From contig CM075989.1 of assembly GCA_038087875.1 (NCBI GenBank), forward strand, positions 15,626,001-15,690,000: 64,000 nt of DNA, in the 5' to 3' direction. A model generated the notes under the pieces. It saw only the letters and a list, made by a program, of their open reading frames with translations. It did no database searches and was not told where the DNA came from. Source of the stretch: Malacoraja senta (taxonomy: Eukaryota). Below, piece by piece: positions 10,970 through 55,737 of this stretch. Position 1 is the stretch's first letter; every line of letters starts with the position of its first letter. A program made the position numbers and the translations under genes.

Positions 10970-11099
10970 CAATAGTCAAGGTCGAGTGTTTCTTCTTCAT
11001 TTGCTTCATTGGTCTGATGGTAATATGAACATTTTATCATGGTGCGTTAATCCTGGAATATATACAGGGTGTTCCTTTAATCAAAGAATCTCAGTCAAC

Positions 11100-12600: not shown

Positions 12601-15555
12601 TTATTTCCCAAAGAAAATCCCCTGTGCTTGCTTACGTGGCTTTGGTCTGCAGCTTTGCTGTCTGAAGCAGCGTATGATTGCACTTCAGATTGAATTGAAA
12701 TTCACATCACAACAACGAGTGAAGTGGTGAAGATCAATAAGGGAGAGATATGTCAAACTGAATCGCTTGCTAAAATGTAACTGAATAGAAAGTGATAAGG
12801 ACAAAAGTGCTGAATAATGAAAGTAGCATGCTTCATTAGAATGGGGTAAACAATGAGATTAAATATTAGAATTTTGACAAGTCTTGTCCAACCCCATAAT
12901 GGATTATTTTAGTGACCTTGGTTAAGCTCGAATGCTGTATAAAATAGTGTCATGTTATTTTTTCTTGTCATACCTGAAAGAGCAGTTAAAGCCTTGTTCA
13001 TTTGTTTACTACATTTGGCTTTATATTAAATGTTTTTGTGCAATGCAGTATATTGTTTACTGTGTGTGTCAACTAAATTGAATCTAATAAAATTTGCTAA
13101 CTTGAAGGAAATAATTTAAAAATAAAATAAATTCCACGATAAGCAGGATGGATCACGAGGGTTTCTTGTGTTTGTGGGATCTGTGAGGCTGGAGATTCGA
13201 TTCCACTGTCGATATTCCAGAGCTGCACCTGAGCTCAGAGATTTTACCACTTTATTGTAGCCTTAAATGTTTTTGTTATTTTGTTATTTTGCTCTATTAA
13301 ATTCACGCACAATTTAAAGTTATGGATTATTTAAAATGTGTATATAGTGAAATAGTTTATCTTAAGAAAGAGACTACTCGTGCTGATATTTGGCCATTGC
13401 AGCCTCCGCAATATCCTTCACATTCACTGGAAGTTCCAAACCAAAGTCTGCCACCCCCCCCCCCCCCTTGTGTTCAAGAAGGAACTGCAGATGCAGGAAA
13501 AATCGAAGGTAGACAAAAGTGTTGGAGAAACTCAGCGGGTGCAGCTGCATCTAAGGAGCGAAGGAAATAGGCAACCTTTTGGGCCGAAATGTTGCCTGTT
13601 TCCTTCGCTCCGTAGATGCTGCCGCACCCGCTGAGTTTCTCCAGCACTTTCATTTACTGAGGACTTACTCTCAGGGCTGGATGACTGAATCTGTCCGTTT
13701 GCCGTGAAGTTTCCCAGTTTTGTTGGCTTTCTCCAGCATCATTCTGGGGGCTCTCCTCTTCGATCCTGTGTCTGGTGAGATAACTTGAAGGGAGATCAGA
13801 GGAAGTCTGTACCAAACATAAGCAATGGTATTCGACATGCGAGGAATGAATTCCCAATCTTCCAATCTACCTTGTTACCGTCCTAGCATTTTTTTAAATC
13901 TTCACTTTCTCTGTCGTTGAAACACTATATTCTGCATTCTTTTTGTTTCCTCTTTTGCACTACCTGTTGTACTCGTGTACGGTATGATTTGTCTGGCTAG
14001 TGCATAAAACAATGATTTTTACTCTATCTCGGTACATGTGAAAACAATCATGAACCAAAACCAATACAAGATGACCTGATTCTGTAAATATTTTGTGATT
14101 CAGTCACAAGCTTGTTAAAGATATACAATGTTTACTGCTTGTCGCTAATATATTGTTGACTGCGACATAAAATATGTGATGTCATTGTTTTTGATGATTG
14201 CAGAGACTGTGGAGAGAGTGATGAAAACCAGCATTTTAGCATTAAAATTACTGTTTTCCCACACATTGTAGTTAAAGGTAAACTAATTTTGCCTTAAGAT
14301 GAAAGCTGCAGCCAACTAAAAAAACTGGGTCTTGCCCCACCAGCTGCAGTATCCTCCAGTAGTTCTCTGACTTCATACCTGATCTTTAAGGTTGAGACTC
14401 AGCAGTGATTACCCGAGAACCATTACAATGGGGCTACCGGACCCACCTCTCCATTTTCAGTTTTCAGTAGCTTGCTGAATTTAAGCATTCATCACAAAGT
14501 ATACCTCCTTGGAGCACTAAGCTAGTTTCAGTGACTTAGTTCTGTCATAGTTGATGAAAATTTAAAAAAAAACAGCTGAGGATGCCGGAAATGTGAAATA
14601 AAAACAGAAAGTACTGGAAACGCACCACAGGTCTGGCAGCATCTGCGGGAAGAGAAACAGCTAACATTTCTGATATGGGATTCTGGACCCGAAACCGTCA
14701 CTGTTTCTTCTTCCACAGGTACCGCCTGACCAGCTGTGTGTTTCCACCGCTTTCTGTTTTTATTCCCACCCCAGCTGTGCTTGGTGTAGATAAAGATATG
14801 CCATATCTGCGTAGAGCAGATATGGCATATGACAGTGGCGCTGTGTAGAAACTAGTAGAGCTTCTGCCTTGCACTCCAGTGAGCCCACTTCAATCCTTCA
14901 GGCTTGGCATGTTTTCCCTGTGACTTCGACTAACACATCCCAAAGATATATGCACGTTAGTTGGCTCAGTGGCCACAGTTACATTACCCCTAGTGTTTGC
15001 TTTGAGGCCTGATGGGAATGTGTAAGAATAGGTTACAGGAATTATTAGTGGGGACATGATAGCTAGCATAGACTTGATGGGCCAAATAGTCTCCTTCTGC
15101 TCCATGAAAATATCAGGAGCTTTGTCGGTCTCTATGTATTTCGATATTGGCAAAGTTACCAGTTTTTGATATTGGGATACAAACGAGTATAAACCATCCA
15201 TTGAAATAGTGACTTTAAATTCCAAATTTGAATAGGCCATGAGCAGGAAAGGCTTGAAGGACTGGGTGGCTTCTTCCCCCTCTTGTTCCTTGTGTTCCCC
15301 TATTTCTTACCAAGTAGGCTGCAGTGGGAATGATGTGTGAGTTTAGTATAATTGATATTTGAAATACTTGGGTTAGTCTGGGGTACTGGATGTCACAGAT
15401 AATGTTCTTTGCTATAAAGCTGAAAGTTCTAGGTTTACCATATGTTCTTAGCACTTGGAGATTTAGTTTAGAGATATACAGTGGAAACCGGCCCTTCGAC
15501 CCACCAAGTCCATGCCGACCACCCATACACTGGGGACAATTTACAGAAGCCAATT

Positions 15556-17819
15556 CAGGGCTCTCGCTTAACTTTTTTTCTCTGTTGCCAGCCGGGCAAC
15601 CTTGGCAGTTTTTTAGGTTGCCAAATGACAGTTTAGGTGGTCATTTAAGATGGCTTGCATGACGCGTGCGATAATGTGCTTGGACGAAGTGCGTAGTTTC
15701 CAGTCGGAATTATACTCAATGAAGCAGTCACATATTATTTCTGCTTTAAATAAAGTCACAAACTAAACATATTCACCAATCAAGACATGATATATCCCAC
15801 AATGACATGCAGCAAAATTATAAGACAGTATCTCAACTCTTTTTACACATTGCAATTAATGCAATTTCTATTAGTTCTTTCCACTTCCAAACAAAAATGT
15901 GGTTGGATTATTCCAGCGTATGATCAACCTGTGTCAATAAATCCTGTATCATGGTAACATATATGCGTACGTATAGTTATGAATGTTGCTCATTAAATAA
16001 CTACAGTACTGATACTCCATATTAAGAGCATTGATTTGCCGTTAAAATGAATTCTGTAATAACGTGTCAATGGTAGCAGTGATAATCGAACACTGCGGTT
16101 TTAATGTTTCACGTGTTCACAATTTAATTAATCCATCTTTATGGATTAAAACAAATAATAACATTGGGAATTTAAACACATTTGATTGCATTCCGTTATC
16201 AAGCATAGTCAATGTTCGCTCTGAAGACATTTCCAGCACAATAGGGTCAGGGAGGTGGGTGTGTGTGAATCAGTGCGGGGTGGATAGATGGCGGGGGTGG
16301 GGGGGGGGGGGTTAGAAGGCAGTCGGTGCAAAATGGATGGATTGAGGCAGGTGAATTAGTACGTGTTGGTTGGAGTAGGTAAAATTGTGAGGGGAAGCAC
16401 AGGGGATGTCAGTGGTGTTGAATGGGGGGGGTTCAGTATGGGATGGATGGGGGTAGACAAAAGTGCTGGAGAAACTCAGCCGGTGAGGCAGCATCTATGG
16501 AGCGAAGGAAATAGGCAACGTTTCGGGTCGAGACCCTTATTCAGACTGTTCCCCCCATTCTTCTTGAATGGGAGGATCAGTACAGGATGGATGGGGGGGG
16601 GAAGATCAGCGCAGGATGATTGGGGGGGGGTCAGTACAGTGTGGATCGGAGGGTCTGTGCAGGATGAATGGGGATCACTACAGGATGAATGAGGGGTAAA
16701 ATGGAGGGTAGGTCAGTACGGGATGAATGCGTGGATTAGTACAGGATGGATGGGGGATCAGTACAGGATGGATGGAGGAGAAGTGCAGGATGGATGGGAA
16801 AGGGGTAAGTACAGGGTGAATTGGGGAACCAGTGTAGAATGGATGGGGGGGGGGGGTGGCAGGAGAATCAATGCAAGGTGGATAGGGTGATCAGCGCAGG
16901 ATGAATGGATGGATGGGGGGTAGATGGGGAGGGGAGCACTGGGGATGTCAGTGAGGACTGAATAGACGCGGGAATGGGGATCAGTGCGGGATGGAGTGGA
17001 GGGGTCCCAGGATAAGGGGGGTGCGTACAAGAGAGAGAGGGGGGGGGCGAGGTGGGGAGGAAGGAAGGTCAGCGCTCCTCAGACAACATCGCCCCGCTGC
17101 TTTGGCCGTTGGGAACTCCTCGCCACCGCCTCCCTCCTCCGCCAGCCAACAGCAAGGTGCGGGGCTGGGCGGTGCAGCTCAGAGATCCTATAGCTATAAG
17201 ATCTTTGGTGCAGCTGCTTCAGACGAGTCGGAGCAATTGACGGGCTTCGCACAGCGGCAGCAGCGGCCGTGACAGCGGCTCCATCTCCTCCTCCTCCCGC
17301 CCCCCGCCCGCCCTGATAAGGGCCTCTGCTTGCAAACCCGTTAACGGCGATAACCGCTTTCAAAACAAACCCTCCCTCCCGCACGCCGAGGCCTCCCCCT
17401 CCCTCCCTCCCTCCCTCGGCGTGCGGGAGGGAGGGTTTGTTTCGAAAGCGGTTATCGCCGTTAGCGGGTTTGCAAGCAGAGGCCCTTATCAGGGCGGGCG
17501 GGGGCGGGAGGAGGTGAAGCTGGAGCTGCTATCGCAGCCGCTGCTGCCGCTGTTCAGGGCCCGTCATTCGCTCCGACCCTTCCTCACCCCGCACCTAGTA
17601 TCTTTGCCCCGCACAGCCGTCACCGCCGATACAAAACGTCACGTTCCTTTTCTCCAGAGATGCTGCCTGACCCGCGGAGTTACTCCAGTTTTTTGTGCCT
17701 ATCTTCGGTACAAACCAGTATCTGGTTGCCAAGCCGGGTAAAATGACTCGGTGTTTAGGTTGCCCGGCGGCGCTTTGAGTAGTCAATGGCACCCGGGCAA
17801 CTGCTAATTTCGAGCCCTG
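15556..17819. mobile_element. Non-autonomous hAT-like DNA transposon (2264 bp) inserted in an HE1-like SINE
   Basis: Termini CAGGGCTC...GAGCCCTG; CAATT on both sides (15551-15555, 17820-17824); repeated subterminal GGCAAC/GTTGCC motifs. Removing it rejoins the SINE (…GAAGCCAATT|AACCTACAAACC…). Confidence 0.85.
16570..17000. repeat. G-rich degenerate minisatellite inside the hAT-like element
   Basis: Repeated GGGGATCAGTACAGGATG(A/G)ATG-type units. Confidence 0.75.
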
Positions 17820-26487: not shown

Positions 26488-27920
26488 TTAGCAATTAGAT
26501 TTCAATGTGTGTGCAGGTTGTAAATACATTTAAACTACAAATATTTCTTTCCTTTAAGTTAAACTGTTACAGTGCCAACAATACCTACGGTTTCTTGGCC
26601 AAATTTTGCGTTCCATGTCATTTAGAGAAAACAATCACTTTTAATGTGCCTTTGATCATTTTCATCTCTGCTTTTGTCCACAGCTCATAATACAGCCATG
26701 CCACCATCACCGATACCCCTACATCCCATGAATTTCAGCTTCCCTTCAGTCCCTTCTCCACAGCCTCAGGTTATTGCCACCTGTTCTATAACCCCAGCAT
26801 CAACAGACCCTCCACCCCAGTCCTCTGGGGATTATTTTACCCTTCACCAAGTAGCCAGCCCGGTCAAATGAAACTGGCTTCTATGAAGGTGCATGTCACG
26901 AGTCACAATTGGGTAGCAACAAACTATCTGTGGAGGAACTCAGCGGATTCGAGCAGCATCTATGGGTGGAAAGGAATGGTCGATGTGTCGGGTTGAGACC
27001 TTGCATTAGGACTCGCATGTCGCAGGATTTCGACCCGAAGCGTTGACCACTCCTTCCTTCCCCACAGATGCTGCCCGACCCACTGAGATCCTCCAGCAGA
27101 TTACTTGTTGCTCCAGATTCCCGCATCTGCAGTCTCTTGTCTTCAAAATGTTGCGGCGTCAGTAGAAACCTACCTGTCTGAGTGTGCTGGCTACAACTCC
27201 TTCACCTCTCTGCCCTCTGTACCTCAGACATCCCATCAACTCCAACAAGCTGGTGCTTTTGCTTCTGATCCAGATGTAATACTTGTAGGGTTTCTTTTGG
27301 TTTGTTACACTGGAGAGGAAAAATGGACATGTGCAGTATGTAAACCTCTTTCTAACACTTCCTATACTGCTAGCAATGTTTAGAACTCTCCCTTGTAGAA
27401 TTCCCTTCCCCAGTCTTCCTTCCAGTCGCAGCCCCCTATTTCCTAGTGTGTTGGACTATTGGACAATCTCCATGTTGAATATCTGACAGCTGTGCCTGGA
27501 TTAGCTGGCCACTCTTCTCAGGGTCCCATCAGTCTGCCTGGGAAATGGCTCTATTTTTGTATCCATGAGAGCTGGAGGAAGTGTAAAACCTCTGGCTTCC
27601 AGCCTTTCCACCGCTTGCTCTCCATCTCCTTCATTATCAGGGTCATACTATCATGGGTCCACATTTGAGGGATAAGGATGCGACCCCTTTAGTGTTTAAT
27701 CATGCTCCAGAATGTCATGTGGAGGGGAAAAGAATTTAGACAAAATGTAACCGGAAGTCCAAGTGGTAAAGAATTTGATGGCGTCTTCATTTCTCTTCCA
27801 TGTGTAATTAAATTAATCTCAATCAAAAGTAAGAAGAAATTTGCATTTATTTTCAACAAGTGTTTTACTAGCGAGGAACACTTAAATTCTGCCTCTACCA
27901 TTGAATGTTTCTTTATATTA

Positions 27921-28120: not shown

Positions 28121-28345
28121 GCAGTTAATTAATGCACTGAAAATGATTCTCACAAAATCTAAGCACGTTAATCGGTGTCTTGTGCATCATCTATGACTAA
28201 TATTTTAATGATTTGAAAATGATTATTGAAGAAATCCACAATGTTTGTTTCATTATATCGAGGTACATGCGCTGTTGTGTTTTTGTTTTAAATAAATTGT
28301 ATGCCTTTGGTATCAATGCCCTGAAAGAATAAATTTATATTTCAG

Positions 28346-28533
28346 GTAGACAAAAATGCTGGAGAAACTCAGCGGGTGCAGCAGCATCTATGGAGCGAAG
28401 GAAATAGGCAACGTTTCGGCCCGAAACGTTGCCTATTTCCTTCGCTCCATAGATGCTGCTGCACCCGCTGGGTTTCTCCAGCATTTTTGTCTACCTTCGA
28501 TTTTCCAGCATCTGCAGTTCCTTCTTAAAAACG
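28346..28533. repeat. Near-perfect palindromic copy (28344-28496) plus tail, with TSD
   Basis: Centre GGCAACGTTTCGG-C-CCGAAACGTTGCC; TATATTTCAG is duplicated at 28336-28345 and 28534-28543. Other palindromic copies at about 13470-13650, 14570-14765, 26925-27140, 40170-40340, 49905-50165 and 55455-55650. Confidence 0.88.
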
Positions 28534-30817
28534 TATATTTCAGTGTCTTCTCAAAGGCTCCCAAACATTGGCGTTAATCACGACTTACCACAGCGATTAG
28601 AGCTGCGAAATGATTAGTTAGTGGGTTGGTCTTGCTGATAGTGTACAGTCATTACTCTAACGCTGTGTCCGTGAGTTTCACTTGAACTTGCACAACTGGG
28701 TCATAAAACTCCGCAGTGCAGGTCCTCAGCAATGTCGATTGGAAACATTTCAACCCTCTAGTCTAACCAAGCAACCACCAGTAATTTTCTCTATGTTTGG
28801 GATGACAATTGAGGGACATGCTTTAAAATTTCCGATGTCAGAATTTCTGACAAAGAATGCTTGTTTAGATGAGGAGTTTGCACTCTCCATCTGATCAAGA
28901 GCGTGAGCAGGTGGTCTGTTTCTTGGGCTCTCTGGGTCTGGGATAGCCATGTCTCAAAGTGCTGCCATTTTACTCCGGGCTGCTTCCTTTTTTTACTCTG
29001 GAGAAGACGATGAATGGAGGCTGTACTTTTTCAAAGATGACCACCCTCGCTAGACACGGTGGCCACTCAAATTACACCTCCAGTTCGTGCATAGGTTTGA
29101 TACTGAAAGCCATCCATCGTCTTCTGTGCTGTACCTCAGCAAGGATGTCAGTAGAGGGGAGGGGGAAGATGTTTACAAATAGAGAGTTACTATCTTACAC
29201 AGTGTGTATCGATGGGCCTGTGGTGGTATAAATGTTGTATTAATGTGCCCCTCCATTTGTCATGGCATCTGCTGCACAGAGACAGGCCCTTCTGCCCACT
29301 CTGTACGGACTGTCCAACTCCCATTTACACTAAACCTACACTAATCTCATTTTATTCTCCTCGCGTCCCATTAATGCCCGAGATTCTACCCCTCGTCTAC
29401 ATACTGGGGGCGATTTACAGCAGCCAAATAACCGACCAGCTGGCTCATCTTTGGAATGTGAGAGGAAACTGGAGAACCCGGAGGAAACTCAACTGGTCAC
29501 GGGAAGAGCGAGCAGACTCCGCACAGACAGCACCAGAGGAGAGAATCAAGCCCGAGTCACTGGAGCTGAAAGGCAGCAACTCTACTGCGCCACTGTGCTG
29601 TATTTTTCGTAGCCCTCTAGTCAGTAGCAGTATACTAATTTCTACTCATTTTTAATCTCTTAATTGGCAAACTCTGCCTCCTGAATATTTATTTTATTCT
29701 GCTATGCGATCAGTATTAAAAACGTGAAGGCAAAGCGTCTGTAGCTGCTCCGTGGAACGCTCCTTCCCTGAGTGCTGCAAAGATCATTCTCTGTACTAAC
29801 CCTGCAGAACTGCGCTGATGATAATAAGCAGCCAAAAACATTCAAGCCTAATGAATAGATGAGGTTTTGTTTGGAGTCTGTGGACAAGGTGAAACCTGGA
29901 GCTTTGCCAGAGTATCTGTTTGAAGTTTGCTGGCTCCTGTTTGTAGGCAAGCACAGATGTACACTTGAGTGGGTTTGGTGAGTGACATTGAGATGCCTGA
30001 GACTGTAAGCTGCTAACAGGACAGCAGACACAGCCTTCTCCACAGAGGAGATTGTGCTGAAAAATTGGGTCATCACATCCTCCACATGGGCAAGGGAAAA
30101 AGAACTAATCAATCACCAACCTCAGGTGAATTGTCCTGTCATTTACAACATGTGGACAGCAAGCACAGATAGAGCAGTGGCAAGGTCCTGCTTGAATCAA
30201 TATCCGAGTCCCTCTGCTCTCTGCATTAAAGTGGCAGCGTAATAACGGCATCAAGTCATAGTAGCTGGTGGGACTAAATCATTTTTTATTTAAAGTACAT
30301 AAAAAATATACTATTGTTAAATCAATGTATTCTATGTACTGTGGCAACATTCTTTATGGTGACGTTTAAAAAAAAATTGGAATACAAATTAATCAGAAAT
30401 GATTTCTTGACACGTGCCAGCGGGAAAGAACAAACGTTTTGCAAGATTGAGGATATTGAGCTGAGTGAAGGGCAGAGTTAATAACATGTTAGTCTAAAAA
30501 CTTCAATATAACTGAAGTAAAGTTGATTGTCCAAAACACATGAAGATGTGTGGGAGGTTCTGCATGATATAAGCGAGCACTAGATGGAGAGGGGGAGTTA
30601 AAGAGGTTTTAGACTTGTAATGTGTTTCTTTGCTGTCTAATGATCGGGGGAGGGGGGGGGGGGGGGGGGGGTCAGTGACATGGGACCGTTGGCTTAACAC
30701 CATCTCCACCTGAGTGGGAGAAGGTATTGAGAGAAAGGCAGAGCCAGGAAGTTAAAGTATGGCTCGGGACATTGCTGAAGGGAAGGCTATTGCATCTTGG
30801 ATGGGAAACTGAATCGT

Positions 30818-34905: not shown

Positions 34906-37377
34906 GGTGGTATGTGTTGAATCTGAATGTCAGTGGATTAGATAATAAAATACTGAACGATTCTTACATTCTATTTTTAACAGCTGAAAATATGTGGACC
35001 TGCAAGTCTTCTGGCAGTTTCTATTACGTTGGTTCTGGACCAACAGAGAGTACAATAATTATAAATTGTCAGCACACGAACTTTGCTTATTCATTGCAGC
35101 CACAGTTACTCCAAACCAGCTGGTTAAACCTGATAACCTTGAAACAACATCAGAAATTAAAGTTAATTTATTTTCTCCCTTTCCCAGTTTTGAAGAAGAA
35201 TCTGGGATGTGAAATGTTTACTCTTGTTTCTCTTTCTCTCTCCACAGACGCTGCCTGTTTCTGACATTTATTTTCTTTATTCCACCATTTCCAATGCAGA
35301 CAGCATGGCAGTATCCCACTTACACGATCAACCAGCACAAAAACTCTTTTCATTGACTTATAATTGACTTACAGCCAAAGTCTACATACACAAGGAGACA
35401 CAAGAGACCACAGATGATGGAACCTCGAGCAAAAAAACCAAACTGCCGGGGAAAATCAGTGGGTCAGGCAGCATCTGAGATTGGAAATGGAAATGACATT
35501 TCAGACCATGACCCTTCTTCAGACATGTGGAGTAGAGGGGAGATAGCTGGTAGAAAGAGGCGAGGGGAAGGGGTGGGAAAAGAGGTGGCAAGTCAGGAAG
35601 AGTTAATTGGCAGATGAGAGAAGGGTGGAGATAGAAAGACGCTGGAGGCGGAGAAGGCAAAAGGGTGCAGGTGTTGGACCCTAGATCAGGAAGGAATGTA
35701 GGGAGTGAAATGTAGAACGAGAGAGAGGGAGAGTGGATGGAATTGAACCTACCCTGCCCACAAAAACCTTGCGTTCCACTCTCACAGCCTCGTCACCCAG
35801 TTATTTTTCCCTCCTCCACCCACTCATCTCCTATCCCTCTCTACTCCATTTTCCTTCCCCTCTCCCCCCACCTATCCACCATCCCTCCCTCTGGTTTTAC
35901 ATTTCACTCCACACTCGCCTTCCTCGTCAGTTTCTACAATCTAAACCCTTTTGTCTTCTCCACCTCCAGCCTTGGTTAGTGTCTCCACCTTCTCCCATCC
36001 TCCTGACTCAATCCTCCCCTGGATACACCTGTCACTTGCCAGATATTCACCCACCTCTTTCCATCAGATATCTCCTCTCAACTTCATCAGACTGAAGGAT
36101 CCTGACCCAAACATTATCTGTCCACTTCTCTCCACAGATGCTGCCTGATCTGTTGTGTTCCACTAGCACTTTATTTTCTGCTCTGTGTATACAGGCCTGT
36201 ACCATGTAAATGTTTGCTGTAGTTTAAAATCATATGTGCAAATCATATGACAAGATTATTCACATTCTCCTCTGTCTGCACCCATTCCTTCCTCTGGCTT
36301 CACAATTTGCAACTCTTCATTCAGTCACACAGCAATCTCTGGCCTTTATTCCAACCATGCGGCTATCAACCCCGCCTCTGTCCCACCCCCTCGCCTATGT
36401 CCACCTATTGCCTTCCACACTTTGTCCTGCCCCTGCCTCTTCTTTTCCCAGCTTTCTCTACCACCTCCATCCAACCAACAATCAGTCTGAAAAAGGTCCC
36501 AACCCGAAACATCAACTATCCATGTTCTCCAGAGATGCTGCCTGACCCATCGAGTTACTCCGGCATTTTGTGTCCATCTTTGGAATAAACCAGCAGCTGC
36601 TGTTCCTTTTGCCTACCACTGACTAACCAAGGCCAAGTAGGGTATCTCCCTCCTGAAGCAGAAACAACGCTCTGAATGGTCTCTCAAGCAGAGCAGTGGA
36701 AGCAACAAGCCTGCAATATTTACAGTCCATTTGGACGAGTCGCTCTTGGGAGATGGAATGAGGGACCTTTGAAATCGTGTGATCTTAGTTGTATTTGGCC
36801 ATGGATGGATGGGACCTTTAGCATGTTGCTTTGCTTGCATTTGGTTCTCATTTGTGGGATTTTAGTGTATCCGTTTCTTCACCAGTTCGTTATTTGGTCG
36901 GGCCCATTGCTAGGATGGGAGTGACGCTGACAATATCTTTCGCCCTCTGAAATCGAAGGTCGTCTGAATGTCCTGCAAGAGTTGGCACCTGTATAAGCGG
37001 CAGCCTGACCTGACCCACTGTGGTTCGGCTGTGCAGCCGTTGCTGCTGTAATGTGGCCACAGCTGATAAACTGTACAGTGTTTTTGCCAAGACCACGTCA
37101 TGGCAATGTGAGCAGGTTTGGTCTCCCCACCTCCAGAAGGATACTTTTATCTTGAAGCCGGTGCACTGTAGATGCACCGGACTGATTCCTGGGATGAAAG
37201 TATCGTTTTGTGAAGAAAGGACTGAGTAAAAGGTTTTCTGCAGAGTAAGAAAGCGGGAGGTGTTGCCATTGAGATCTGCAAGCTTCCGAGGGAGTTGATG
37301 AGGTAAATACTGTTAGGTCATTTCCATTAACTGCAGTTAGGAGAGATGGGAGAAGGGGCAAGTCTCTCAAGTTTGGA

Positions 37378-39938: not shown

Positions 39939-40645
39939 TAATTCTACACACATCAAACCACGGGGTTGGCGGGCCAGAAAAGTTGTTTGCAACAAGGGAC
40001 TGACATACAGATAAAAAACTAAAGCTGGCATTTTAAGAAGGAATTGAACCTTGCTGTAAAAAGAAAGAAAAAATTGCAGTTGCCTCAACTTGGTTGGCAC
40101 ACAGCAATATTGAAAAGGACTTTAACATTTAAGAAATCAATTTAAAATTCTCTCGCTGTTATACTAAAAGCAAACTGCTGGAGGAACTCAGCAAATCAGG
40201 AGGCATCTATGGAGGGAAATGGACAGACAATGTTTCCAGTCAGGACCTTTCTCCAGCTTGATAAATGGTCCAGACCTGAAACGTCATCTGTCCATTCCCC
40301 CCTTTGATGCTGCCTGACCCGCTGAGTTCCTCCAGCAGTTAGGTTCTCCAGACCCCAGAACTTGCAATCTCTTCTGTCTCTACTGTTCTTGTTGTTGAAT
40401 AACAATGCAATTCGGTACACAGTGATGAGATGGAGGGGCTGCTGGTGTGAGATATATCCCACACTGACAACCTCCACACCGTGTGCACTTCAGTGCCAGT
40501 CCCAATGCCTGTTTTCTGGGTCCAATGGAGGTAAAAAAAAAGGGTTGGTAAAGACAGTGTAAGAGCTGGTCTGGATGAGCCCAAGATCAGAATCATCGAG
40601 GTTGGAGAGGCAGAGAGAACAATTTAATTCTAGTTCCATGATCCA

Positions 40646-41252: not shown

Positions 41253-42044
41253 GTGAGTGGAGACAACTACACGGCCTCTGCCTGCGGTTATGTCATCTCC
41301 AACAGATACAACCAATCGTGCAGCTCTTCCCCACCTGGAATCATAGCTCTGGGCCTGCTCCCCGAGGCAAGCTTTAGCCTTTGTGAATGGATCAGCACTT
41401 CACATGATTTCACAAGCAACCAAGTCAGGAAGAATGTTTAACAGGCAAACTTTTCACTCCCTTAGTCAATGTCTAGTCTGAAGAAGGGTCCCGACCCGAA
41501 ACGGCACCTATCCGCGTTCTCCAGTTATGCTGCCTGACCCGCAGAGTCAATCCAGCACTTTTTTGTTTGTTTGTTTGTATCCAGCATCTGCAGTTCCTTG
41601 TATCTCTCGCCAATGTGTAATGCTTTGATTCACTTCCCAATCCCAGGAAAACCCAGGTTGGGTTCTCCTCCAGGAGTTTTTCCTACACTTGGGCAGCTGA
41701 CAGGGTTCCCCAGCAATCAAGAACAAAGTGCAGAGTTACAGTGCACACTCGTGATCTCCCTCAAGTTAAGGGTTCACATCTCTACCTCCACCCACTGAAA
41801 GCCCTCAATGTTCACTCCTGCCTACCTGCCCGCACTTGGCTCAAGACATTTCCATAAATTCTGTTGCAAAACTGCCTTAAAACTTCAATTTAAAAAACCC
41901 CAGATGATTTTATATCCAAAGTAGCTGGCAATAATACTGATTGGGGATGATCAGCCATGACCATATTGAATGGCAGTGCTGGCTCAAAGGGTCAAATGGC
42001 CTACTCCTGCACCTATTGTCTATTGTCTATTGAGTCTTCATTTA

Positions 42045-42484: not shown

Positions 42485-44546
42485 TACATTGTTCCAATTT
42501 TGTTATGGGTGTGTTTAATGACATGTTTTAAATGTTTGAGAAGAATGTCGAGAAGAAAATATGAAGTTATTTCATGGATGTTAAAAGAAAGGCGGGCACA
42601 TGTTTGTGACATTTTTTGTGAGGGTGAAACATTTGTTGTGCACTTTCCTTCAGTCAGAATTTGCAATCTGGGACAAAGTGTCTCAGCAAATATCAGCAAA
42701 ACATAATGTTCCGGTTTGTCCTGGTATACAAGAAGGGCATCATAGTTGAAGATTTAAGAAATACTGGCTCCTTGTAAAGCAGCTTCCATGCCATTAAAAG
42801 TACAAACAATAGCTAATTCCATAATATCTTCATTTGATTCATTCTTTGAGTCAAGATAATCAAGAATGTTTCATTGTCAACAGAACAATGACATTCTTCC
42901 AACAGCAGCTTAAAAGGCATGTGAACACAATGCAAACAGATAATATATATTAGACAAACATTCAAAAAATTTAATAATCCCAATAGTAGTGCAAAAAGCC
43001 CAAAGTCCTCAGTGCAACCAAAGACTGTCCATAGTTGAAAGTTGAGGTTACTGTTATGTGTTCAAGAGCTTGATGGTTGTTGGGAAGAAGCCATTCTTGA
43101 ACTTGAACAATAAATGTCCTTTGTCCTTTGTCCTTTGGTGGTCATGGTGTTAAATGGCCATCACTGGCAAAACCAACTTATTGCTCATCTCTAACTTCCC
43201 TCAGTAAAATTATAGATGTCTTAAAGCTCTATTTTTATATTCTATCTATATTTGTAAGGTGGAGATTGACAGATTCTCGATTAGTACGGGTGTCAGGGGT
43301 TATGAGGAGAAGGCAGGAGAATGGGGTTGAGAGGGAAAGATAGATCAGTCATGATTGATTGGCGGAGTAGACTTGATCGGCTGAATGGCCTAATCCTGCT
43401 CCTATAACTTATGAACTCTATAGTGCTTCTGGTGAAGGTACAGTCACAGCACAGCTGGGGAGGGATTCTCCGGATTTGGAATTGGTGAGCATGAAGAGTG
43501 GTGAACAGCAAGTCAGAATAGTGTGTACCTTAGTTTATACCTTGGAGGGTGCCATGCAGTGGATGGTGTTCCCATTTGCCTTAAACTCAACGGTAGAGGT
43601 TCTAAGTTTAGGAGGTGTTGATAGCGTAGCCTAGGTGTGCAACTGCAGACTATTTTGCAGATGGTACTCGCTGCACCCATCGTGTAGTGGGAAACAGATG
43701 TCGGGGCTGGCTGGGGAATTTTCATAAACCTGTTTTTCAACTACATTGACTAGCAGTCTGCAACGGTCCTCAGTTGTATGGAGACAATGTGCCATCTGCT
43801 GGTGGTGATGGGTATTTCTGCCTCTTCATTTCAGCAATGGACTGTGTTAAAGTGGAGGCAAAGAAGGAAACATTAGAGCAGCTGGAATATCAAATACCAC
43901 TATCCAGTTATCGGGAATTTAAATTCCAATTAAATAAATTCTGAATATAAATCTAAGGTAGACACAAAATGCTGGAGTAACTCAGCGGGACAGGCAGCAT
44001 CTCTGGAGGGAAGGAATTGGTGACGTTTTGGGTCGAGACCCTTCTTCAGTTGCCTTTACCAGTCTGTTGCTGTTATTGGTGGAAACCTTGCCTGTACCTA
44101 AGTAACTCTAACCCTCCGTTCTCAAGAAGACAGATGCCATCACCTAAACAAGGGACGGGTAATAAATGGAATCACTGTCCCCGCTCTCCAAATCCTGTGA
44201 ATTAATAACAACTGTATGGTTAATGAGCGAGAAACAAACCGCTGGAGTAACTCGGCAGCAAGAAGGATCACGTTCTCAAACCTCAACTGTCCACTTCCCT
44301 CCACGGATGCTACCTGACCCGCTGAGTTCCTCCAACAATTTTTTTTTTTAGCTCAAGATTCCAGCATCTGCAGGCTCTTGTGCCTCCAACATGGTTAATC
44401 ACTTTCTTCAGGCTTTTTAGTGCAGAGTTGTACGACAGAGATAGGACACCGAGATGGGGCCATTCAGCCCCTTTTGCCTACTCTCCCACTCAGTGAGATC
44501 ATGGATAATCTTCTATCTCAGCACCACTTTCTGAAATAACCACATA

Positions 44547-45439: not shown

Positions 45440-45735
45440 TTTCCAGCACCGTCTCCGACTACATTTTATTTCTGTTTGCTTTGTTGTTACCTTCTCCTGG
45501 CTAAAAATGATCTATTCTATATTTTCCTTGCTCTCCATTTCCTTTATCCTGCTTTCACACCTTACACTTCATTATCCATGTATCTCCCTCTCACCTGATA
45601 TCAGTCTGAAGAAGGTTCTCGACCCGAAACACCACCCGTTCCTTCACTCCAGAGATGCTGCCTGTCCCGCTGAGTTACTCCAGCTTTTTGTGTCTATCTC
45701 CGATTTAAACCAGCATCTGCAGTTCCTTCCCACAC
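45440..45735 (+). mobile_element. Penelope-like element 3' end / pseudo-LTR-like repeat with a degenerate hammerhead core at 45606-45633
   Basis: Pyrimidine-rich tract, then CAGT-CTGAAGA-AGGTTCTCGACCC-GAAA and the family tail GATGCTGCCTG.CCCGCTGAGTTACTCCAGC...CCAGCATCTGCAGTTCC. The same layout occurs at about 20630-20995, 35390-35660 (-), 35840-36185 and 36260-36612. Confidence 0.6.
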
Positions 45736-47160
45736 TCCTCAACATTGTGATTAATGGGAGGTGGCTCTTTGATTGTGGCAGCAAATCCATAGTGCGCACC
45801 CTGGTAGAACAAAGTGCCAAGGCGCAAAACCACAGGATTTGACCAATATTGTTTTCATTCATAAGCAGACTAAATGACATGTACCCTCCATCTCTTGGAG
45901 TTGGACTACACCAGGTATTGCACTGGTCCCTGCCTGCTGGAACCAGGGTGCACCATTACTGGTGCTACTCCAACGTTGTATTGCTGTTCCCTCACTGTAA
46001 CTGGGTCAATGTCCAGGAACTCCCTTTGAAAGCAGGATGGTAGTAGATGCCCCCTCGCCTTCCCAAAGGGGTTAGTCCGGGACAGTGCGAGTCGGTCTCA
46101 GCAGGGTTTGTCCATGCCAGAGATGAATAAAAATGAAAATCAGCATGGGGATTTTTGAGCCAGGCCGGAATTCTCCCCACGGTAGTCGGGGACAGTTAGA
46201 TCTTTCAAGACAGGGAAGAAGAGATTTTCAAATGAGGGAACAGCTAGCCAGTGCGGGTAAGTGGATAAAGTTGCGGAGCTGCTGTAGTCGAAGCTCAGAG
46301 TCGGGCTGAAGGTCCCACTGCACCAGAAATGTCTGTAGATTTAGCATCATCCTAGAAGGGTAGTCAGTGTAAATTGTCCCTGGCGTGGAGCTGAGTAGAA
46401 GAATGTGAGTGTGAGTGTGTGTGTGTGTGTATGTGGGTGGGGGGATGGAGGGAAGAGGAGAGGGAAGAGGGGAAGGGAAGGGGGTCAGCACAAAATAAAA
46501 TGGGATGAGTATAAAGTGAGGGCTTGGTGGTGGGCATGGACTCATTGGGCTGAAGGGACTGTTTCCCTGCTGTATTACACTGTCCAATATAATCAGATGG
46601 AGAGGTGGAACAGCTCCCCAGTCGAGAAGCTGCTCCTCATTTATACGTTCGTATGATTCAGTTCCTCAGATGCGGGGATTGGGGCTGCAGATGCAGGAAG
46701 TATTGGATTGCTGGCCAGTCAGTGGGGACGCTGATCTCCACAACTACCAGCCGGGCCAAGAGCCTGCAGGCACAGCGCCGATTGGCCCCAGCTGTGTTCC
46801 CTGCCCCGCTGCACATTTCCAGCTGTTCCCACAGCTGCCTGGTCTTCCTGGTCGAACCCCTTCCTGGCCAATAACGTTTCAACATTGGAATCCCCCAAAC
46901 CACCAGGGAATCAACATACTTTGATAAAACATTTTCACATTCAGGTCCAGGAAAACGTGTCGAATCCCCCGGTAGGACACGGTTGGCTGGAGGCACAAGA
47001 GACGCAGATGCTGAAATGCATGGTCTTGACCCGAATTGTTCACCATCTCTCTTCCTCCATGCATGCTGCTTGACCCGTTGAGTTCTTCCAGCAAAGATAG
47101 ACACAAATTGGTGCAGTAACTCAGCCGGACAGGCATCATCTCTGGAGAGAAGGAATGGGT

Positions 47161-47188
47161 GACGTTTCGGGTCAGGACCCTTCTTCAG
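47161..47188 (-). ncRNA. Candidate minimal type I hammerhead ribozyme core
   Basis: - strand reads CUGAAGA-A-GGGUC-CU-GACCC-GAAA-CG-UC, with flanking GGU/ACC able to start helix I. All core nucleotides are present; activity is untested. Confidence 0.6.
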
Positions 47189-47292
47189 ACCAGCATCTGC
47201 AGTTCCTTCCAGCGCACGAGTTCTTCCAGCAGTTTGTTTTCTGTTTTGCCGTATTTATGACGGAGCGTGACTGTTCATTTCTTGTGTTTCAG

Positions 47293-47406
47293 GCATCGGA
47301 CACGCGGCAAACAAACCTGAAGAAGGATGTGGAAAGCAACTCCTCGGCCCTGGGTCAGTACAAGCAGATGAACAACTCCCTGACTGCCATGACGTTAGAC
47401 CTGCAG
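47293..47406 (+). CDS. myzap: MYZAP coding exon (ASDTRQTNLKKDVESNSSALGQYKQMNNSLTAMTLDLQ)
   Basis: TTTCAG acceptor, CAG|GTAC donor, 114 bp, phase 0/0. SSAL..MN.L pattern as in MYZAP. Confidence 0.88.
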
Positions 47407-48814
47407 GTACAAACTCATCGCTCACTCTGCTTGCAGCTGCTGACGGGCTGGGGAGGGCTACCACTACCAGTTTGTTCCAGACACACCGAGGACGGTTCAC
47501 AAAATGGAGGCAGGAAGCAGGGTGGTTCATCAGAAATGGTGGCCTGTAGAAATATACTTGAGAAGCTGCCCAAACACTTATTTGGAAATCTAAGCAGCTC
47601 CCTATGAATACACCACAAACCATCTGGTGATATGAGTATAGGAATAAGGTAGAACAGTGCGGAGTGGATGGAGTGGGGGTTCTTTAAATAATAGTTGTAA
47701 GGCAAAGCAACAGGCCTTTTGGCCCAACACACTTCTGCTGACCATCATGTCTATGCTAGTCCCGCTTGCCAGCGTTAATTCCATGTTCCTTTACCCCCCT
47801 GCCTTATTGCCTGTCTAGATGCCTCATAAATGTCACCGTTTCTGCCTCCACCACCACCTTTGGCAGTTCATTCCGGATACCGACTACCCTTTGAATGAAA
47901 AATGTACCCCTCAGATCCCCTTTAAACCTTTGTCCCTCTCACCTTAACCAAGGCCCTCTCATATCAGACACTTTACCATGGAAACGTTGGCTATTGTCAC
48001 ATTGTTAGCAGAAATCAGAAAAGGTGTCAGAAGTTATGGGGAGAAGGCAGGAGAATGGAGTTAGGAGGGAGAAATAGATCAGCCATGGTTGAATGGCGGA
48101 GTAGACATGATGGGCCGAATGGCCTAATTCTCCTCCTATTCCCTGTGACCTTATGAAATCTGCAGCTTCAACTTTCAATGGATTGACTTTGTCGCACAAC
48201 TGCCATTCCCATGATCAGGAACCTGGTGACATCCAGTGATGGATTCAGTACCTGTGTCAGGAGCAGAGGTGACCTTCTGGGTCAGGAGCCTGTGCTGTGG
48301 GATGCATAAGGAGGAGAATGCCTGGATGCTTTATCATTCAGCATCATCCCCACATTACTGCACAAAACATAATGAATGATCAAAGTTAGCAGCTGAACAA
48401 AACAAATTGTACATGCTTGAAACAATTGTTCCAGAATGGATGGTTAACATTTAGTTCAGTTTAGAGATTTAACATGGAAACAAGCCCTTCGACCCCCCAA
48501 GTCCACGCCGACTATCAACCACATGTTCACACCACTTTCACATCCATTCCCATCACACTTGGGGCAATTTACAGATGCCATTTAACCTACAAACCTGGTC
48601 TTTGGGATGTGGGAGGAAACTGGAACACGCCAAGGAAACCCACGCAGTCACAGTGAGAACATACAAACGCCACACAGACAGCCATCAAGATCAGGATCGA
48701 ACCCGGTTCTCTGGCGCTGTGTGAGGCAGTGGCTTTACCAGCTGTGCTGCCCCAATTTGCTGCCAATACTTGCAACGGGCCAGGATTTGTAACCAGATGC
48801 TTTGTTTTTATCAG

Positions 48815-48967: not shown

Positions 48968-51055
48968 GTAAAGAGCACAGTGAGAGTTGTCAAAGTGGTC
49001 TCCGTGTGTGGAAACATAAAACAAGGAAATGGTTCTTCTGGGTACAGCAAGTGGGGGCACCACACAACATTTTACTGAATGTGTAGGAAGGAACTGCAGA
49101 TGCTGTTTTTTCAGCTTTTATAGTGATCGTTAAGTTTTTAAATGCAATTTTTAAGTATTTAAAGTATGAGGTAATACTTTTGTTCTTGGCTTCTTGTGCT
49201 GCCATCTCTGAGAATTGTTGATGTGATTGGCTGTTCAGCCACACTACTGACATCTCTATTGTAAGAAGCTGGACATCACTTTGAAAGATGCCTGATGGCA
49301 AACAAGGCCTGGAAAATATGTACTCCATTTCAGGGAGATGGCTAGATCTTTGTAGGCAGGTTTCAATGAGGTTCAGGCCAGTGACAACTTTATCACCGTC
49401 TTCTGGTCTTTAACTATTGCAGGAATTAATGGGATCCTGGCTAGGTTCCCCATTTGAGACAGCAAAACTCTTTGACAGAGGTGTGGCATAATGACAGAGT
49501 GGTTTACTAAGGCAGGTGGGATTTGTGAATAGAGGACCAGAGTACAAAATCAGAATTGTTGCATTGAACTTGTACCAAACTCTAGTTAGACCACACCTGA
49601 GTATCAGATGAAACCTGGTATTCGCATTTTGGGATTAATGAGATGTTCCAGAATGGATGGTTAACGCTTAGTTTAGTTTAGAGATTTAGCAAAGGATTTC
49701 AGCTGCTCGAGGGATTAGATGGAGAAACTGGCTTCTGAGGCAGAAATATAGAAGAATTGAGACAGGAGATCAGATGGGGTATAAAGGGGAAATGGTTCCC
49801 ATTAGTAGATGGTCCAAAGACCAGGGGAGAATTATTCAAAATTCTGTGTTAAAGGGAGAAGGAGGATGTGGCAACAAGTTTTAAGTGTAGCATAGAACTG
49901 TACAGAAGACAGACACAGAGTACTGGAGTAACTCAGCGGGTCAGGCAGCATGTCTGGAGAAAAAGATGTCCTGTGTTTAAGAAGGAACTGCAAATCGAAG
50001 GTAGACAAAATGCTGGAGAAACTCAGCGGGTGCAGCAGCATCTATGGACCGAAGGAAATAGGCAACGTTTCGGGCCGAAACCCAAAGATGTCCTGACCCG
50101 CTGAGTTACTCCAGTACTTTATGTCTACCTTCGATATAAACCAGCATCTGCAGTTCCTTTCTACAAACGGAACAGCATATGGCAGGTTAAACTTAGCTCC
50201 TCTGCCTGGCAATTGATCCATACCCTACATTCCATGCATATTCATGTGTCTATCTACATGTATCTAAAATGTCACTATTGTATCTGGTGTTCTGGGCACC
50301 TGGCAAACTGCCCTGCACATTTCTTTTTTATATATCTCCCTCTAACTTTAAAGCTATTCCCACTAGTTTTTGACTGTGTACCCTATGTATGCCTCTCATA
50401 ACTTTATACGCTTCCATCAGGTCTTCCCTCAGCTGCTGATGCTCCAAGGAAAACAATCTTTTTTACCCAGATTCTAGTCTGGAATTCATTGGAATCAAAA
50501 TGTACCTTGAAAAGGGAATTGGACGGGGACGAGAGGGAACAGTTTGAAGCCCAATGGGGAATGAGACTGGGAACTGGCATAAACTCAATGGGCCGAATGG
50601 CCATCCCTTTCTGTGCCACAACTTTCTATGCTTCTATGATCTAAGCTGGGCAAGGAAATGTACCCCTCCCTCCCTCCCCTCTGAGGGACTTTGTGCGAGA
50701 CAGAGCCAGTACCTTCAGGGCAGGAGTGAAGGAAAAAAATTGCAAATAAATCACTCGCATAAACTGCTCATAACAAACAATTGGAATGATCGGCATGTCA
50801 GCTGCTGTTAATACAACGGACTGATCCTTAAACAATGTGCAGCTGGCTGATACACAATGAGCTGCCAACTCTTTAGTTTTATGTATCCGAGGGTCAGACT
50901 CCCACTTTTCCTAAGGATCCAAAGTTGATCAGGTTTCTAGTCAGCCGCAAGCAGCAGGCTGGCTCTGCAGTGTGTCGAGGGTCAGATCAGTCCCCTGCCT
51001 GACACAAGGGCATGCTGCCTTTTACACCCAAAACCTCTACAGAAACAAGGCGGCA

Positions 51056-52459: not shown

Positions 52460-54926
52460 AAGGCGGCAGTATCACCTCAGCCCAGTCCGGCCAGTTTTAT
52501 CACATTAAACCTGACTACCTTCAGGCTATTAACAGAGGTTCTGATAAATTGGATCTATTTTTTCCCCAACAATATTTCACACAACACGGTATGTAGATAC
52601 TGTAGCTCCAGTGATCTTGACCTCTGGTGTTGTCTGTGTGGAGTTTGCACGTTCTCTCCTTGACTGTGCGGGCTTCCCCTGGATGCTTTGGTTCCCTCCC
52701 ACATACCAAAGATTTGCTGGTTGTAAGGTCAAGTAGGCACTGCAAATTACGCTTGGTTGTGTGGGTGAGTGAAAGAGTCTGGGATGGTGGAGGTTGCTTT
52801 ATTTGTGTGGAGAATGAGGGTAGGAATTGTAGGAATGCTCCACCTCTCTGACCTAATAAATATCAGTAATATGTTGCATCGTATGGGTATTTTGTAACTT
52901 TTCTCCAGTATCACCATTAAGTAATCCTTCTATTTCACCAGCTTTGGGATCAACTGAGATTTGGAAAGAATTAATGTAATTCCACGAGGAAATACCATGA
53001 CAAATTCACGGAGATACAAGCGAGTTTACCTGTGCGGTGTTACATTGCACCAAGGCATAATAAACCTTGACTCTCGTAGTTTCTGATATTTAAAACAATT
53101 GCTCACATGAATAATAATGATGTGTTTAAAATAAACATACCCATTTTTCAGTGTGTTTGGTTTGAAATTTACATTAATGCCGTAATCTGACATAGTTGCC
53201 ATTTGAACCATTAATGTTAACGCAACTCTACACAGAGTTTGAGATTACTGTACTTTCCTTGTTCACCAAAACATGTTAATAAAAACACAATTTAAAACGC
53301 TGAAGTTAATATTTATGTTTAAGGTACAGTCAGGAATGTGGTGGGTATATGGAACGAGTTGCCACACAAGGTCGTTGAAGCAGGTACTACAACAGCAAAA
53401 GACACTTGGACAAGTACATGGATAGGAAACATTTAGAGGGATATGGACCAAATGCAGGCAAATGGGACTAGCCTAGATGGGGCATCTTGGTCAACATGGA
53501 TGCGTTGGGCCGAAGGGCCTGATTCCATGTTGTTTGACTCTCTACCGTGCCATATTTTGGAGTAATTTTCCATCATCTGAGGATGGGCGATAGACACAAA
53601 ATGCTGGAGTAACACAGCGGGACAGGCAGCATCTCTCAAGAGAAGGAATGGGTGACGTTTCGGGTCGAGACCCTTGATATAATCTGAGGAATGGCACTGG
53701 GTTGTAAACATCAAGGTTTCCTTGAATGTGCTTGACCTGATGTCATGAGTCTATGTGGCCCCTGGACTTGGTGTGGAGGATTTCTAGATTTATCTACTCC
53801 CGACTGCATGCCACCACCTTTTATGAGATTGTCTTCCAAAAGGACAGGAAAGGCAATGGAAAGCTGATAGAGGAGTCAGTTTACATGTCACATTGCCTGA
53901 AAGGAACATAAGTGTTTTCGGGTCCTAATCCACATGTAAAAACAAACACCCTCTTTCTGTGCTTGCCCTGGAGGTGTGAACGGTAGCTATGTGTTGTTTG
54001 GCTGGCAGCTGTTACCTCTCTGTGGACCAGCAACACCTCGACGAGCTGCCTCCCTGCGGCAGAAGGGCTGCTAATGGCAACCTTAATGAACTATGAAATA
54101 ATCATTATTGAACATTGTCCAATCAACTTTATGAAGCAAAACACCTCCATAACCATTTTGATTAGGTTGGAGAATTTGAAGGTACCGCAAAGCTGATATA
54201 TTCCATCTGATTACAGCAGGCATTCCATTGGATTGGGCCTGTGTGTTCAATAACAATCTAGGCACTGCCATTCTCACATACATTGTGCATTCCACATAAA
54301 GGAGCAGGAGGAGGCCATTCGGCTCATTGAGTGTGTTCCACCGTTGAGTAAGATCATAAACAACTTGTGATAATTCCATGTACCCATTATTGCACCTTTT
54401 CCCTTGATGATGTTGTTGAACAAAAATATATTAATCACCTGGTCAGCTGACCAATCAGCCAACAAAATATCAACTGACATTTGTTGTTAACTTCTTTACT
54501 CCGTGCGTGGAAGCTCTTTCCGCTGGATCTAATCCTAAAACACTGCCTCCTGCTCCTAACAGAATATTTTCTTTCACTTGACATTTGCGTACAGGCCTAA
54601 AGACACACAGCACTGAAACAGGCCCTTCGGTAAAACTTGCCCATGCGGACCTGGGCTAGTTCCATTTGGCTGCATTTGGCCCATATCCTTCTAAATCTTG
54701 TCTAACCATGCATATGTCCAAATGTCTTTTAAATGTTGTACCCTCCCCTACTACTTCCACGTGGTAGCTCGTTCCATATACCCATCACCCTCTTGTGTGA
54801 AAAAGTTGTTCCTCTTGTTCCTTTTAAATCTTTTCCTTCTCACCTTAAACCTATGTCCTCAAGCTTTGCACTCTCCTACCCTGGGAAAAAGACTGTAACC
54901 ATTTATTTTGAATTAGCTGAACCTTT

Positions 54927-55249: not shown

Positions 55250-55527
55250 TACACAATGTACTTATTCAAGGCCGGCATAGAAGTTGAATTATTCAAACAG
55301 CAATACAAACTGGGTCCGCTTCATTGCACGGGCTTGTACGTTTATCTTAAAGAATAGACCCATTGTATCTTCTTTCTTTAAGCTTCTTTAATTATTTCTG
55401 CTGCCGTGCACAGCTTTACCTGACGCTGCTTTAAAAAATGACACAAGATTCATATGGAGAACATGGATAAGTAACGTTTCTGGTCGAGACCCTTCTTCAG
55501 ACTTGGGGTCAAGTTTGAATGCTGGGT

Positions 55528-55555
55528 CTGAAGAAGGGTCTCGACCCGAAAAGTC
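55528..55555 (+). ncRNA. Candidate minimal hammerhead core, back-to-back with a second - strand core at about 55472-55500
   Basis: CUGAAGA-A-GGGUCUCGACCC-GAAA-AG-UC; UGGGU/ACCUA can form helix I. Confidence 0.5.
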
Positions 55556-55737
55556 ACCTATCCATGTTCTCCAGAGATGCTGCCTGACCTGCTGAGTTAC
55601 TGCAGCACTTTGTATCCTTTTGTGTATACCAGCATTATGGCAGTTCCTTGTTTCGACAGGATTTATATATTTATTTTCAAAATCTAGAAGCAATTCCTTA
55701 TTTATTAAGCATTTTATTTCTTGTCACTGTATTACAG

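Follow-up and report, generated by a model that had tools for sequence, protein, structure and literature searches.

Which kind of element is the short repeat that recurs throughout this stretch of 64,000 nucleotides (the window), carrying at 47161-47188 on the minus strand a motif that looks like a minimal hammerhead ribozyme, and could that motif still work where it now lies? The original prediction took the repeat for a high-copy, hammerhead-type family derived from Penelope-like elements (PLEs), and in this respect it agrees with the features of the motif, with the insertion signatures of the copies and with their very high abundance. We consider it probable that the repeat is the pseudo-LTR (pLTR) end of an endonuclease-bearing PLE and that the motif is its minimal type I hammerhead.

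The repeat family and its hammerhead core

A profile built from the window copies retrieved 47 segments, 40 of them at E<1e-3, and none in the 10 Markov-resampled windows used as control. The family covers 4141 of the 64000 bases, or 6.5% of the window, at a density of 0.6 segments per kb, and accounts for the largest families in the repeat search of the window. By our count from the segments they represent about 30 insertions, so that the earlier figure of roughly two dozen copies was right about a high copy number and slightly low. Both orientations are present, as had been claimed, with 21 strong segments on the plus and 19 on the minus strand (p=0.87). This absence of strand bias also bears on a proposed depletion of intact sense-strand cores, for which the intact copies are too few: three of the four copies with all invariant bases are antisense, a number too small for a test.

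Each copy spans 100-130 nt and starts a few bases before the CUGANGA box, followed by helix II, GAAA, ACGU, H17, a variable pyrimidine linker, a conserved hairpin block, a T-rich stretch and an optional tail; between this tail and the first bases of the conserved block 8-9 bp can form, with 85% of cells paired. Four long copies reach 150-340 nt upstream into pyrimidine-rich sequence, which suggests that the short repeat forms the end portion of a longer element; the arms of the pair at 35.5-36.1 kb show 70% likeness over 219 nt of this upstream sequence. The coordinates are collected in Table 1.

Table 1. Features of the hammerhead-bearing repeat family and its setting, in window coordinates
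Feature	Position	Strand	Basis or remark
Minimal type I hammerhead core	47161..47188	-	Exact match; feature list in PMC4209133
CUGANGA box of 47161 core	47188-47182	-	
Extra A of 47161 core	47181	-	
Helix II of 47161 core, 4 bp and tetraloop	47180-47169	-	
GAAA of 47161 core	47168-47165	-	
ACGU palindrome of 47161 core	47165-47162	-	
C17 of 47161 core	47161	-	Predicted cut between 47161 and 47160
Core with 3-bp helix I	47158..47191	-	47191-47189 pairs with 47160-47158
Short-ended copy, complete from hammerhead through pyrimidine linker to 3' hairpin block, tail lacking	47092..47190	-	Profile search
Inverted family tail, head-to-head with 47161 core	47189..47210	+	Profile match 47182-47209
14-nt target-site duplication, left copy	47080..47093	n/a	
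14-nt target-site duplication, right copy	47218..47231	n/a	
Older family member	47016..47245	+	Pieces 47016-47094 and 47218-47245, split by the 47161 insertion
Host-gene coding exon nearest 47161 core	47293..47409	+	105 nt away, opposite strand
Long copy	45450..45735	+	About 150 nt pyrimidine-rich upstream, decayed core, 3' hairpin
Large head-to-head pair	35399..36186	both	Arms with 220-340 nt homologous pyrimidine-rich upstream sequence
Long copy	36248..36611	+	About 230 nt pyrimidine-rich upstream sequence
Head-to-head pair	55453..55651	both	Plus arm core at 55528, sense to host gene
Head-to-head pair	10745..10985	both	16-nt target duplication
Head-to-head pair	12168..12409	both	Joined at the core's 5' edge; 10-nt target duplication
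UUCG-subfamily near-perfect palindrome	28336..28543	both	Centred in helix II; 10-nt target duplication
Second UUCG-subfamily pair	13477..13657	both	Centred in helix II
Split pair	49906..50160	both	Nested UUCG-subfamily copy 49980-50083 (-), 12-nt target duplication
Older head-to-head pair	6721..6919	both	Profile search
Older head-to-head pair	14576..14774	both	Profile search
Older head-to-head pair	26917..27140	both	Profile search
Older head-to-head pair	40164..40376	both	Joined at the core's 5' edge
Single tailed copy	41475..41601	+	U16.1>G
Single short copy	43950..44049	-	G12>A
Single short copy	16455..16547	-	G8>U; inserted in G-rich minisatellite
Short copy starting inside core	53575..53690	-	9-nt target duplication

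The 28-nt core at 47161 matches the predicted consensus exactly and is intact as claimed, with all 11 invariant bases and H17. When up to 3 mismatches are allowed, the core pattern occurs at 8 places in the window and at none in 100 shuffles. All invariant bases together with H17 are found in three of the 30 aligned copies (47161, 35521 and 55528) and, by eye, also at 55500, while invariant bases, helix II and palindrome are all kept in a single one of the 30, that at 47161. The copies that had been called near-intact fared unevenly: 55528 (+) keeps the invariant bases and has lost the ACGU palindrome; the copy placed at 55472-55500 (-), which truly starts at 55473, keeps them by eye with a broken G10.1-C11.1 pair; and the description does not hold for 41478 (+) or 45606 (+), where an invariant base is lost (U16.1>G and U16.1>C respectively).

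Helix II had been drawn as 5 bp with a 2-nt loop, a loop that cannot close, and actually consists of 4 bp with a 4-nt loop. The UUCG form described at 50064-50083 (-) does exist, with its loop closed by U-G instead of C-G and with no CUGANGA box, a box that is missing from all five segments of this subfamily (13477, 13577, 28343, 28405, 49980). The predicted loss of the G of GAAA at a CpG was confirmed, G12 being G in 25 of 35 copies and A in 7; in the palindrome, the C is T in 8 of 36 copies and the G is A in 7 of 36. These substitutions are as expected from CpG decay.

The hallmarks of the minimal hammerheads of PLEs are an extra base at 9/10.1, a G10.1-C11.1 pair and a palindromic 15.2-16.2, as in the consensus of Fig. 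S3 (PMC4209133). In our alignment the extra nucleotide between A9 and 10.1 is A in 14 of 14 rows, and the 10.1-11.1 pair is G-C in 14 and G-U in 2 of the 23 rows with letters. The ACGU palindrome (15.2-16.2 or 15.1-16.1) is found in the majority sequence and at 47161, and is kept in 13 of 30 rows. Helix I formed with native flank has 2 contiguous pairs (71% paired) and is lengthened by junctions to 3 bp at 47161, where the third pair is contributed by the inverted tail across the junction and not by the native 5' flank, and to 5 bp at 55528. In helix II 79.8% of cells are paired, U-A changes to U-G in 4 rows and three pairs show one double change each. Covariation exceeds that of shuffles only marginally (the five measures are reached by 14, 25, 28, 10 and 9 of 500 shuffles), and no consensus fold of the copies emerged from RNAalifold.

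Excess conservation of the core holds relative to loop and linker and not relative to the 3' stems. Core positions are identical in 139 of 153 cases (11 positions), and the 18 loop and linker positions in 183 of 250 (p=0.003). The count uses 14 rows in which the first box is visible, a choice that favours that box and inflates the contrast; of the 15 rows with such a box, 36093 was left out because its 3-nt deletion is misaligned. Conservation of the 3' stems equals that of the core (253/280). An Rfam covariance-model scan gave no hammerhead family among 51 matches at E<=10, which we attribute to the absence of helix III.

Insertion structure, coding remnants and abundance

Twelve head-to-head neighbours lie within 30 nt of each other, and in 11 of them the tail is on exactly one arm, the twelfth being a nested insertion; three of these 11 are weaker cases (the 55453 arm is cut short, 47182 is a tail only and 44216 is maybe a separate insertion). 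Two more pairs found by hand (35399/36093 and 49906/50082) are also one-tailed. The other neighbour arrangements, one tail-to-tail and two same-strand, all result from nesting. Copies have two discrete 3' ends 31-36 nt apart, and the optional tail is about 30 nt long. Direct repeats of 9, 10, 10, 12, 14 and 16 nt occur at 6 of 24 loci, with a chance expectation of 1.1% per locus, and at the remaining 18 the direct repeat is 6 nt or less. Insertion into older members of the family is seen for the 47161 copy with its inverted tail (14-nt duplication) and for 49980-50083 (12 nt). The pairs are joined at the core's 5' edge, or within helix II in the UUCG subfamily, and short native palindromes are found there.

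PLE insertions are reported to carry an inverted 5'-truncated copy and a 30-40 bp tail that is often at one end only (PMC8557442), duplications of 8-10 bp and palindromic head-to-head junctions read as self-priming (PMC3846280), and PLEs tend to insert in or beside older copies (PMC6765202). The insertion signatures of the window repeat match these published ones. A MITE-like or foldback DNA transposon with a hammerhead look by chance would account for the many loci that are near-perfect hairpins, the missing Rfam match and the weak covariation. However, the arms are unequal, with the tail on one of them only, and neither the duplications of 9 to 16 nt, nor the many single copies, nor the four diagnostic extras of PLE hammerheads fit such an element, which makes this explanation highly improbable. 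Five other long inverted repeats in the window are MITE-like (42069-42459, 37374-37875, 54927-55249, 17301-17504 and 21586-21913), with arms of 76-180 nt that are 88-98% complementary; the last sits between two pieces of a family copy.

Of the 40 segments, 28 start at model positions 2-10 and none between 24 and 41, start positions being bounded by the model's own 5' edge, beyond which the four long copies extend. A cleavage product would start at model position 33. None of the copies starts at the cut site, from which we conclude that the RNA used as template was probably uncleaved. In the same direction, a PLE of Anolis shows internal priming at two sites, an uncleaved RNA template and protein-assisted cleavage (PMC11167929). 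We also considered whether the short copies stem from a spliced leader and rejected this, as the bases upstream of single short copies hold no common exon.

We therefore propose, for the pLTR reading, that the RT-endonuclease of the element would nick the DNA and start reverse transcription inside its own uncleaved RNA, priming at one of two sites that flank the 3' stem-loop. Copying would usually stop after 100-130 nt, at the 5' edge of the hammerhead or in helix II, where short native palindromes could allow a strand switch and give rise to the inverted second arm. The core would be kept by selection in the source elements, where cleavage would depend on a second copy and, probably, on the protein of the element, and genomic copies would then decay, mainly at CpG.

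The link to a PLE coding region was sought at several levels. No RT or GIY-YIG remnant was detected in the window (Pfam on 14 of 161 ORFs, and a motif scan), and the viral, metagenome and prokaryote collections likewise yielded no PLE ORF, so that in no DNA was the repeat seen to adjoin one; Pfam on 10 host exons gave only a weak Myosin_tail_1 match (E 0.012). A protein search with the translation of a long copy returned 9 proteins, 8 of which read through the repeat; P0004 and P0007 look like inverted pairs of it, and Pfam on 9 representative proteins gave no PLE domain. In P0003, from a 17 kb contig, the repeat and its tail are followed by about 60 residues in which a shifted frame runs without a forced stop. 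This frame allows 10 of 11 positions of the PLE endonuclease C-terminal motif, with a background best of 9 over 86,832 positions and at most 8 in the other 11 proteins, for a motif that was fixed after the frame profile had been seen and a P0003 that is known from the protein alone, as a single record. P0003 fits a partial tandem, that is, the repeat followed by a truncated unit, and could also reflect chance nesting amid many copies. Searches for proteins that fuse the repeat with a PLE yielded nothing beyond P0003 and no in-frame protein, and the ESM Atlas gave no informative match for the P0003 tail and one host exon. Against viral contigs P0003 has one weak match (37%, L018). P0006, from a newt tandem repeat, was taken as a chance match.

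A further sign of a PLE may lie upstream of the core. In the long copy at 45450, which has its short end near 45699 and a tail reaching 45730-45735, the upstream tract ends in CAG one base before C3. By analogy this pyrimidine tract may be the 3' end of a PLE intron, because in the Penelope of D. virilis the intron end, at 491 (PMC2377424), and C3, at 496 (PMC4209133), lie alike.

For abundance beyond the window, four public runs with four organism labels were mapped on 45380-45800 at 80% likeness, X1 being the organism of this stretch. The contigs placed on the repeat number 121,658 in X1, 236,889 in X3, 18,350 in X21 and 17,417 in X22. In X1 the depth goes from about 6 in the unique flanks to 2e4 just upstream of the core, 1.3e6 at the core and 1.1e7 at the 3' hairpin, rising over 50-fold at the core's 5' edge. 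Depth is no copy number; an abundance on the order of 1e5 to 1e6 is in line with 0.6 segments per kb. In all four runs, among the ends listed, loose ends pile up behind 45699 (short end) and 45730/45735 (long end). Among the differences listed, the majority letters restore the G of helix II (94%) and the U16.1 (93%) that are mutated in the 45450 copy, and G16.2 is G in 51% of X1 depth. The repeat is present in two runs that we guess to be RNA, which speaks for presence only and not for strand or expression. In viral, metagenome and prokaryote collections the family pattern was found at 0, 10 and 5 loci, none of which (0/15) is a family member (best nhmmer E 0.033), and the general core pattern gave in viral contigs 2 loci inside a phage gene, discarded as chance.

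Two positions show joints of their own. At 45647, many contigs join element ends or the 5' edge to an internal position near that of the nested insertion 49962/50084; it is possibly a preferred site of self-insertion or strand switch, part of the signal being a subfamily difference. At 45699/45735, opposite-strand joints between short end and long end occur in 51 X1 contigs, a tail-to-tail stacking that is absent from the window.

These data also bear on a different origin, in which most copies would come not from aborted full elements and rather from short non-autonomous masters of 100-130 nt, starting at the hammerhead, transcribed alone or as hairpin dimers in the manner of SINEs or retrozyme monomers, and mobilised in trans by a PLE. 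The sharp common 5' start with far lower depth upstream would fit such masters, as would the several subfamilies, each with its own junction, and the 51 opposite-strand joints, which suggest re-copied or stacked units; retrozyme monomers are likewise PLE-derived and dispersed (10.64898/2026.07.22.740005). On the contrary, pair junctions vary by locus as if formed afresh, four long copies carry upstream sequence shared at thousands-fold depth, diverged upstream sequence in other subfamilies could also give the step in depth, and the window holds no tandem arrays. We regard short masters as unlikely.

Cleavage competence and genomic setting

Are the window copies able to cleave? Published minimal forms do not cut as monomers and cut weakly as dimers (PMC4209133), and the Anolis PLE hammerhead cuts only with the element's protein (PMC11167929). 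For the 47161 monomer the hammerhead shape is predicted at -7.0 vs -12.2 kcal/mol for the best fold, with an ensemble probability of 7e-5, and for the dimer at -12.3 vs -29.3 kcal/mol for the best two-strand fold, in a model that ignores core contacts. Predicted folding alone thus disfavours self-cleavage as monomer or dimer. The best sense copy, 55528, has no palindrome and is predicted to be buried in the single long hairpin of its pair. The idea that these loci work as dimers was not borne out: adjacent copies are inverted and fold into long hairpins, and no cores in direct tandem within 30 nt exist in the window. The MFE z-scores of 7 stretches range from -0.63 to 1.44, none significant. 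The genomic copies are probably not working ribozymes in host pre-mRNAs, and 'ribozyme-bearing' is a term that fits the source elements of the family, with one in 30 aligned copies wholly intact.

The 47161 copy deserves separate comment, being the sole wholly intact core, with a 3-bp helix I and an exon at 105 nt. It might have been co-opted as an intronic ribozyme that regulates the host gene, and intronic hammerheads conserved in amniotes do exist (PMC6155905). Nevertheless, it lies on the strand opposite to the gene, has neither a helix III nor a tandem partner, misfolds in the predictions and shows ordinary decay in the remaining parts of its body, and one intact copy among 30 needs no selection. 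Co-option is accordingly the least credible of the explanations considered here, and the 47161 core is probably a well-preserved fossil and not a functional intronic ribozyme.

Coiled-coil exons lie on the plus strand in two groups, at about 100-24,900 and 39,015-61,570. We take them to belong to CGNL1 (first gene) and MYZAP (second gene), with a presumably MYZAP-like exon nearest the intact core. Nine of the 40 strong segments fall in the interval that separates the final recognised exon of the first gene from the initial one of the second and may thus not be intronic; for these, the claim that the repeat lies in introns of both genes may not hold. The last recognised exon of the first gene, 24843-24970, seems on our assumption to leave its expected frame after about 29 codons, through either a real indel or an assembly error. 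An assembly gap of 200 N is found at about 27920-28120. We presume an elasmobranch origin of the DNA and regard the repeat as typical of skates and rays.

Other repeats share the window. A 373-aa open frame at 50915-52036 (+) has a zf-RVT domain (E 6e-12) and represents the 3' portion of an ORF from a non-LTR retrotransposon, with no relation to the family. A second dispersed family (D10, D12, D19), presumably SINE-like, occurs at 3824, 17820, 29425, 48576 and 60356, and the stretches at 32045-32493, 38818-38947, 41903-42032 and 8775-9095 (D15) resemble what we assume to be 3' ends of CR1-type LINEs. A G-rich minisatellite with a unit of about 23 nt extends over 16245-17001 and contains the family copy at 16455-16547.

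Significance and relation to known hammerhead elements

Minimal hammerheads are known in PLE ends of fish, coelacanth, frog and reptiles, and one more host is no surprise. What stands out somewhat is the scale, with 6.5% of the window and more than 120,000 contigs in one run, together with the fact that the copies record steps of PLE integration: a tail on one arm, a turn-round at the hammerhead and no starts at the cut site. The perfect intronic hairpins would in addition be candidate natural substrates for RNA editing or small-RNA pathways.

A bolder possibility, which we hold to be doubtful, is that these are self-standing, MITE-like fold-back retroelements of 100-130 nt, headed by the hammerhead and made by a PLE RT that primes at both tail sites and turns at the ribozyme. 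If this were true, with 1e5 to 1e6 copies per genome in several related species they would be among the most abundant ribozyme-motif repeats of vertebrates and a main source of intronic double-stranded RNA, and the rule of one tail per pair would tell in which order the two strands are synthesised when a PLE integrates.

The literature search, including 10.1101/2025.06.08.657570, gave no description of the family in cartilaginous fish; it may already be named in Repbase, Dfam or elsewhere. In the main text of the skate genome paper the word 'Penelope' is absent (PMC10115646), and Fig. S3 of PMC4209133 shows no chondrichthyan among its 40 species. Retrozymes and PLEs have been reported in one sampled chondrichthyan (10.64898/2026.07.22.740005).

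The closest match to the motif is the minimal hammerhead of metazoan PLEs (Cervera and de la Pena 2014, PMC4209133), with which it shares CUGANGA plus the extra base, G10.1-C11.1, GAAA, the palindromic 15.2-16.2 and the lack of helix III, as well as a layout of mostly dispersed single motifs with some opposite-strand pairs. Within that set, both helix II (4 bp) and helix I (2 bp) rank among the shortest; 2-bp helices I occur in the D. virilis and Culex rows. The highest counts given there, about 4,000 and 9,000 per genome, are descriptor hits and not directly comparable with the 121,658 contigs of X1.

The architecture of the 3' part resembles Poseidon PAc of Anolis carolinensis (Frangieh et al. 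2024, PMC11167929), in which a hammerhead is followed about 100 nt on by a stem-loop, two ends define a tail and uncleaved RNA is the template. In PAc the stem-loop is AC-rich and the targets AT-rich, and the ORF starts at stem II, whereas for the window repeat no ORF start was identified. With the Penelope of Adineta vaga and PLEs in general (PMC3846280, PMC8557442) the family shares inverted head-to-head pLTRs with palindromic junctions, the 30-40 bp tail at one end and duplications of 8-10 bp; however, the inverted pLTR of those elements flanks an ORF-bearing unit, and the window pairs consist almost all of the pLTR tip only.

Finally, the non-LTR retrozymes (Li, Clavereau, Pollet 2026, 10.64898/2026.07.22.740005) are, like this family, non-coding, hammerhead-bearing and PLE-related. 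They are defined by direct tandem units, each with a complete hammerhead, and no such array was found among the 47 segments; the loci of the window are instead single or inverted.
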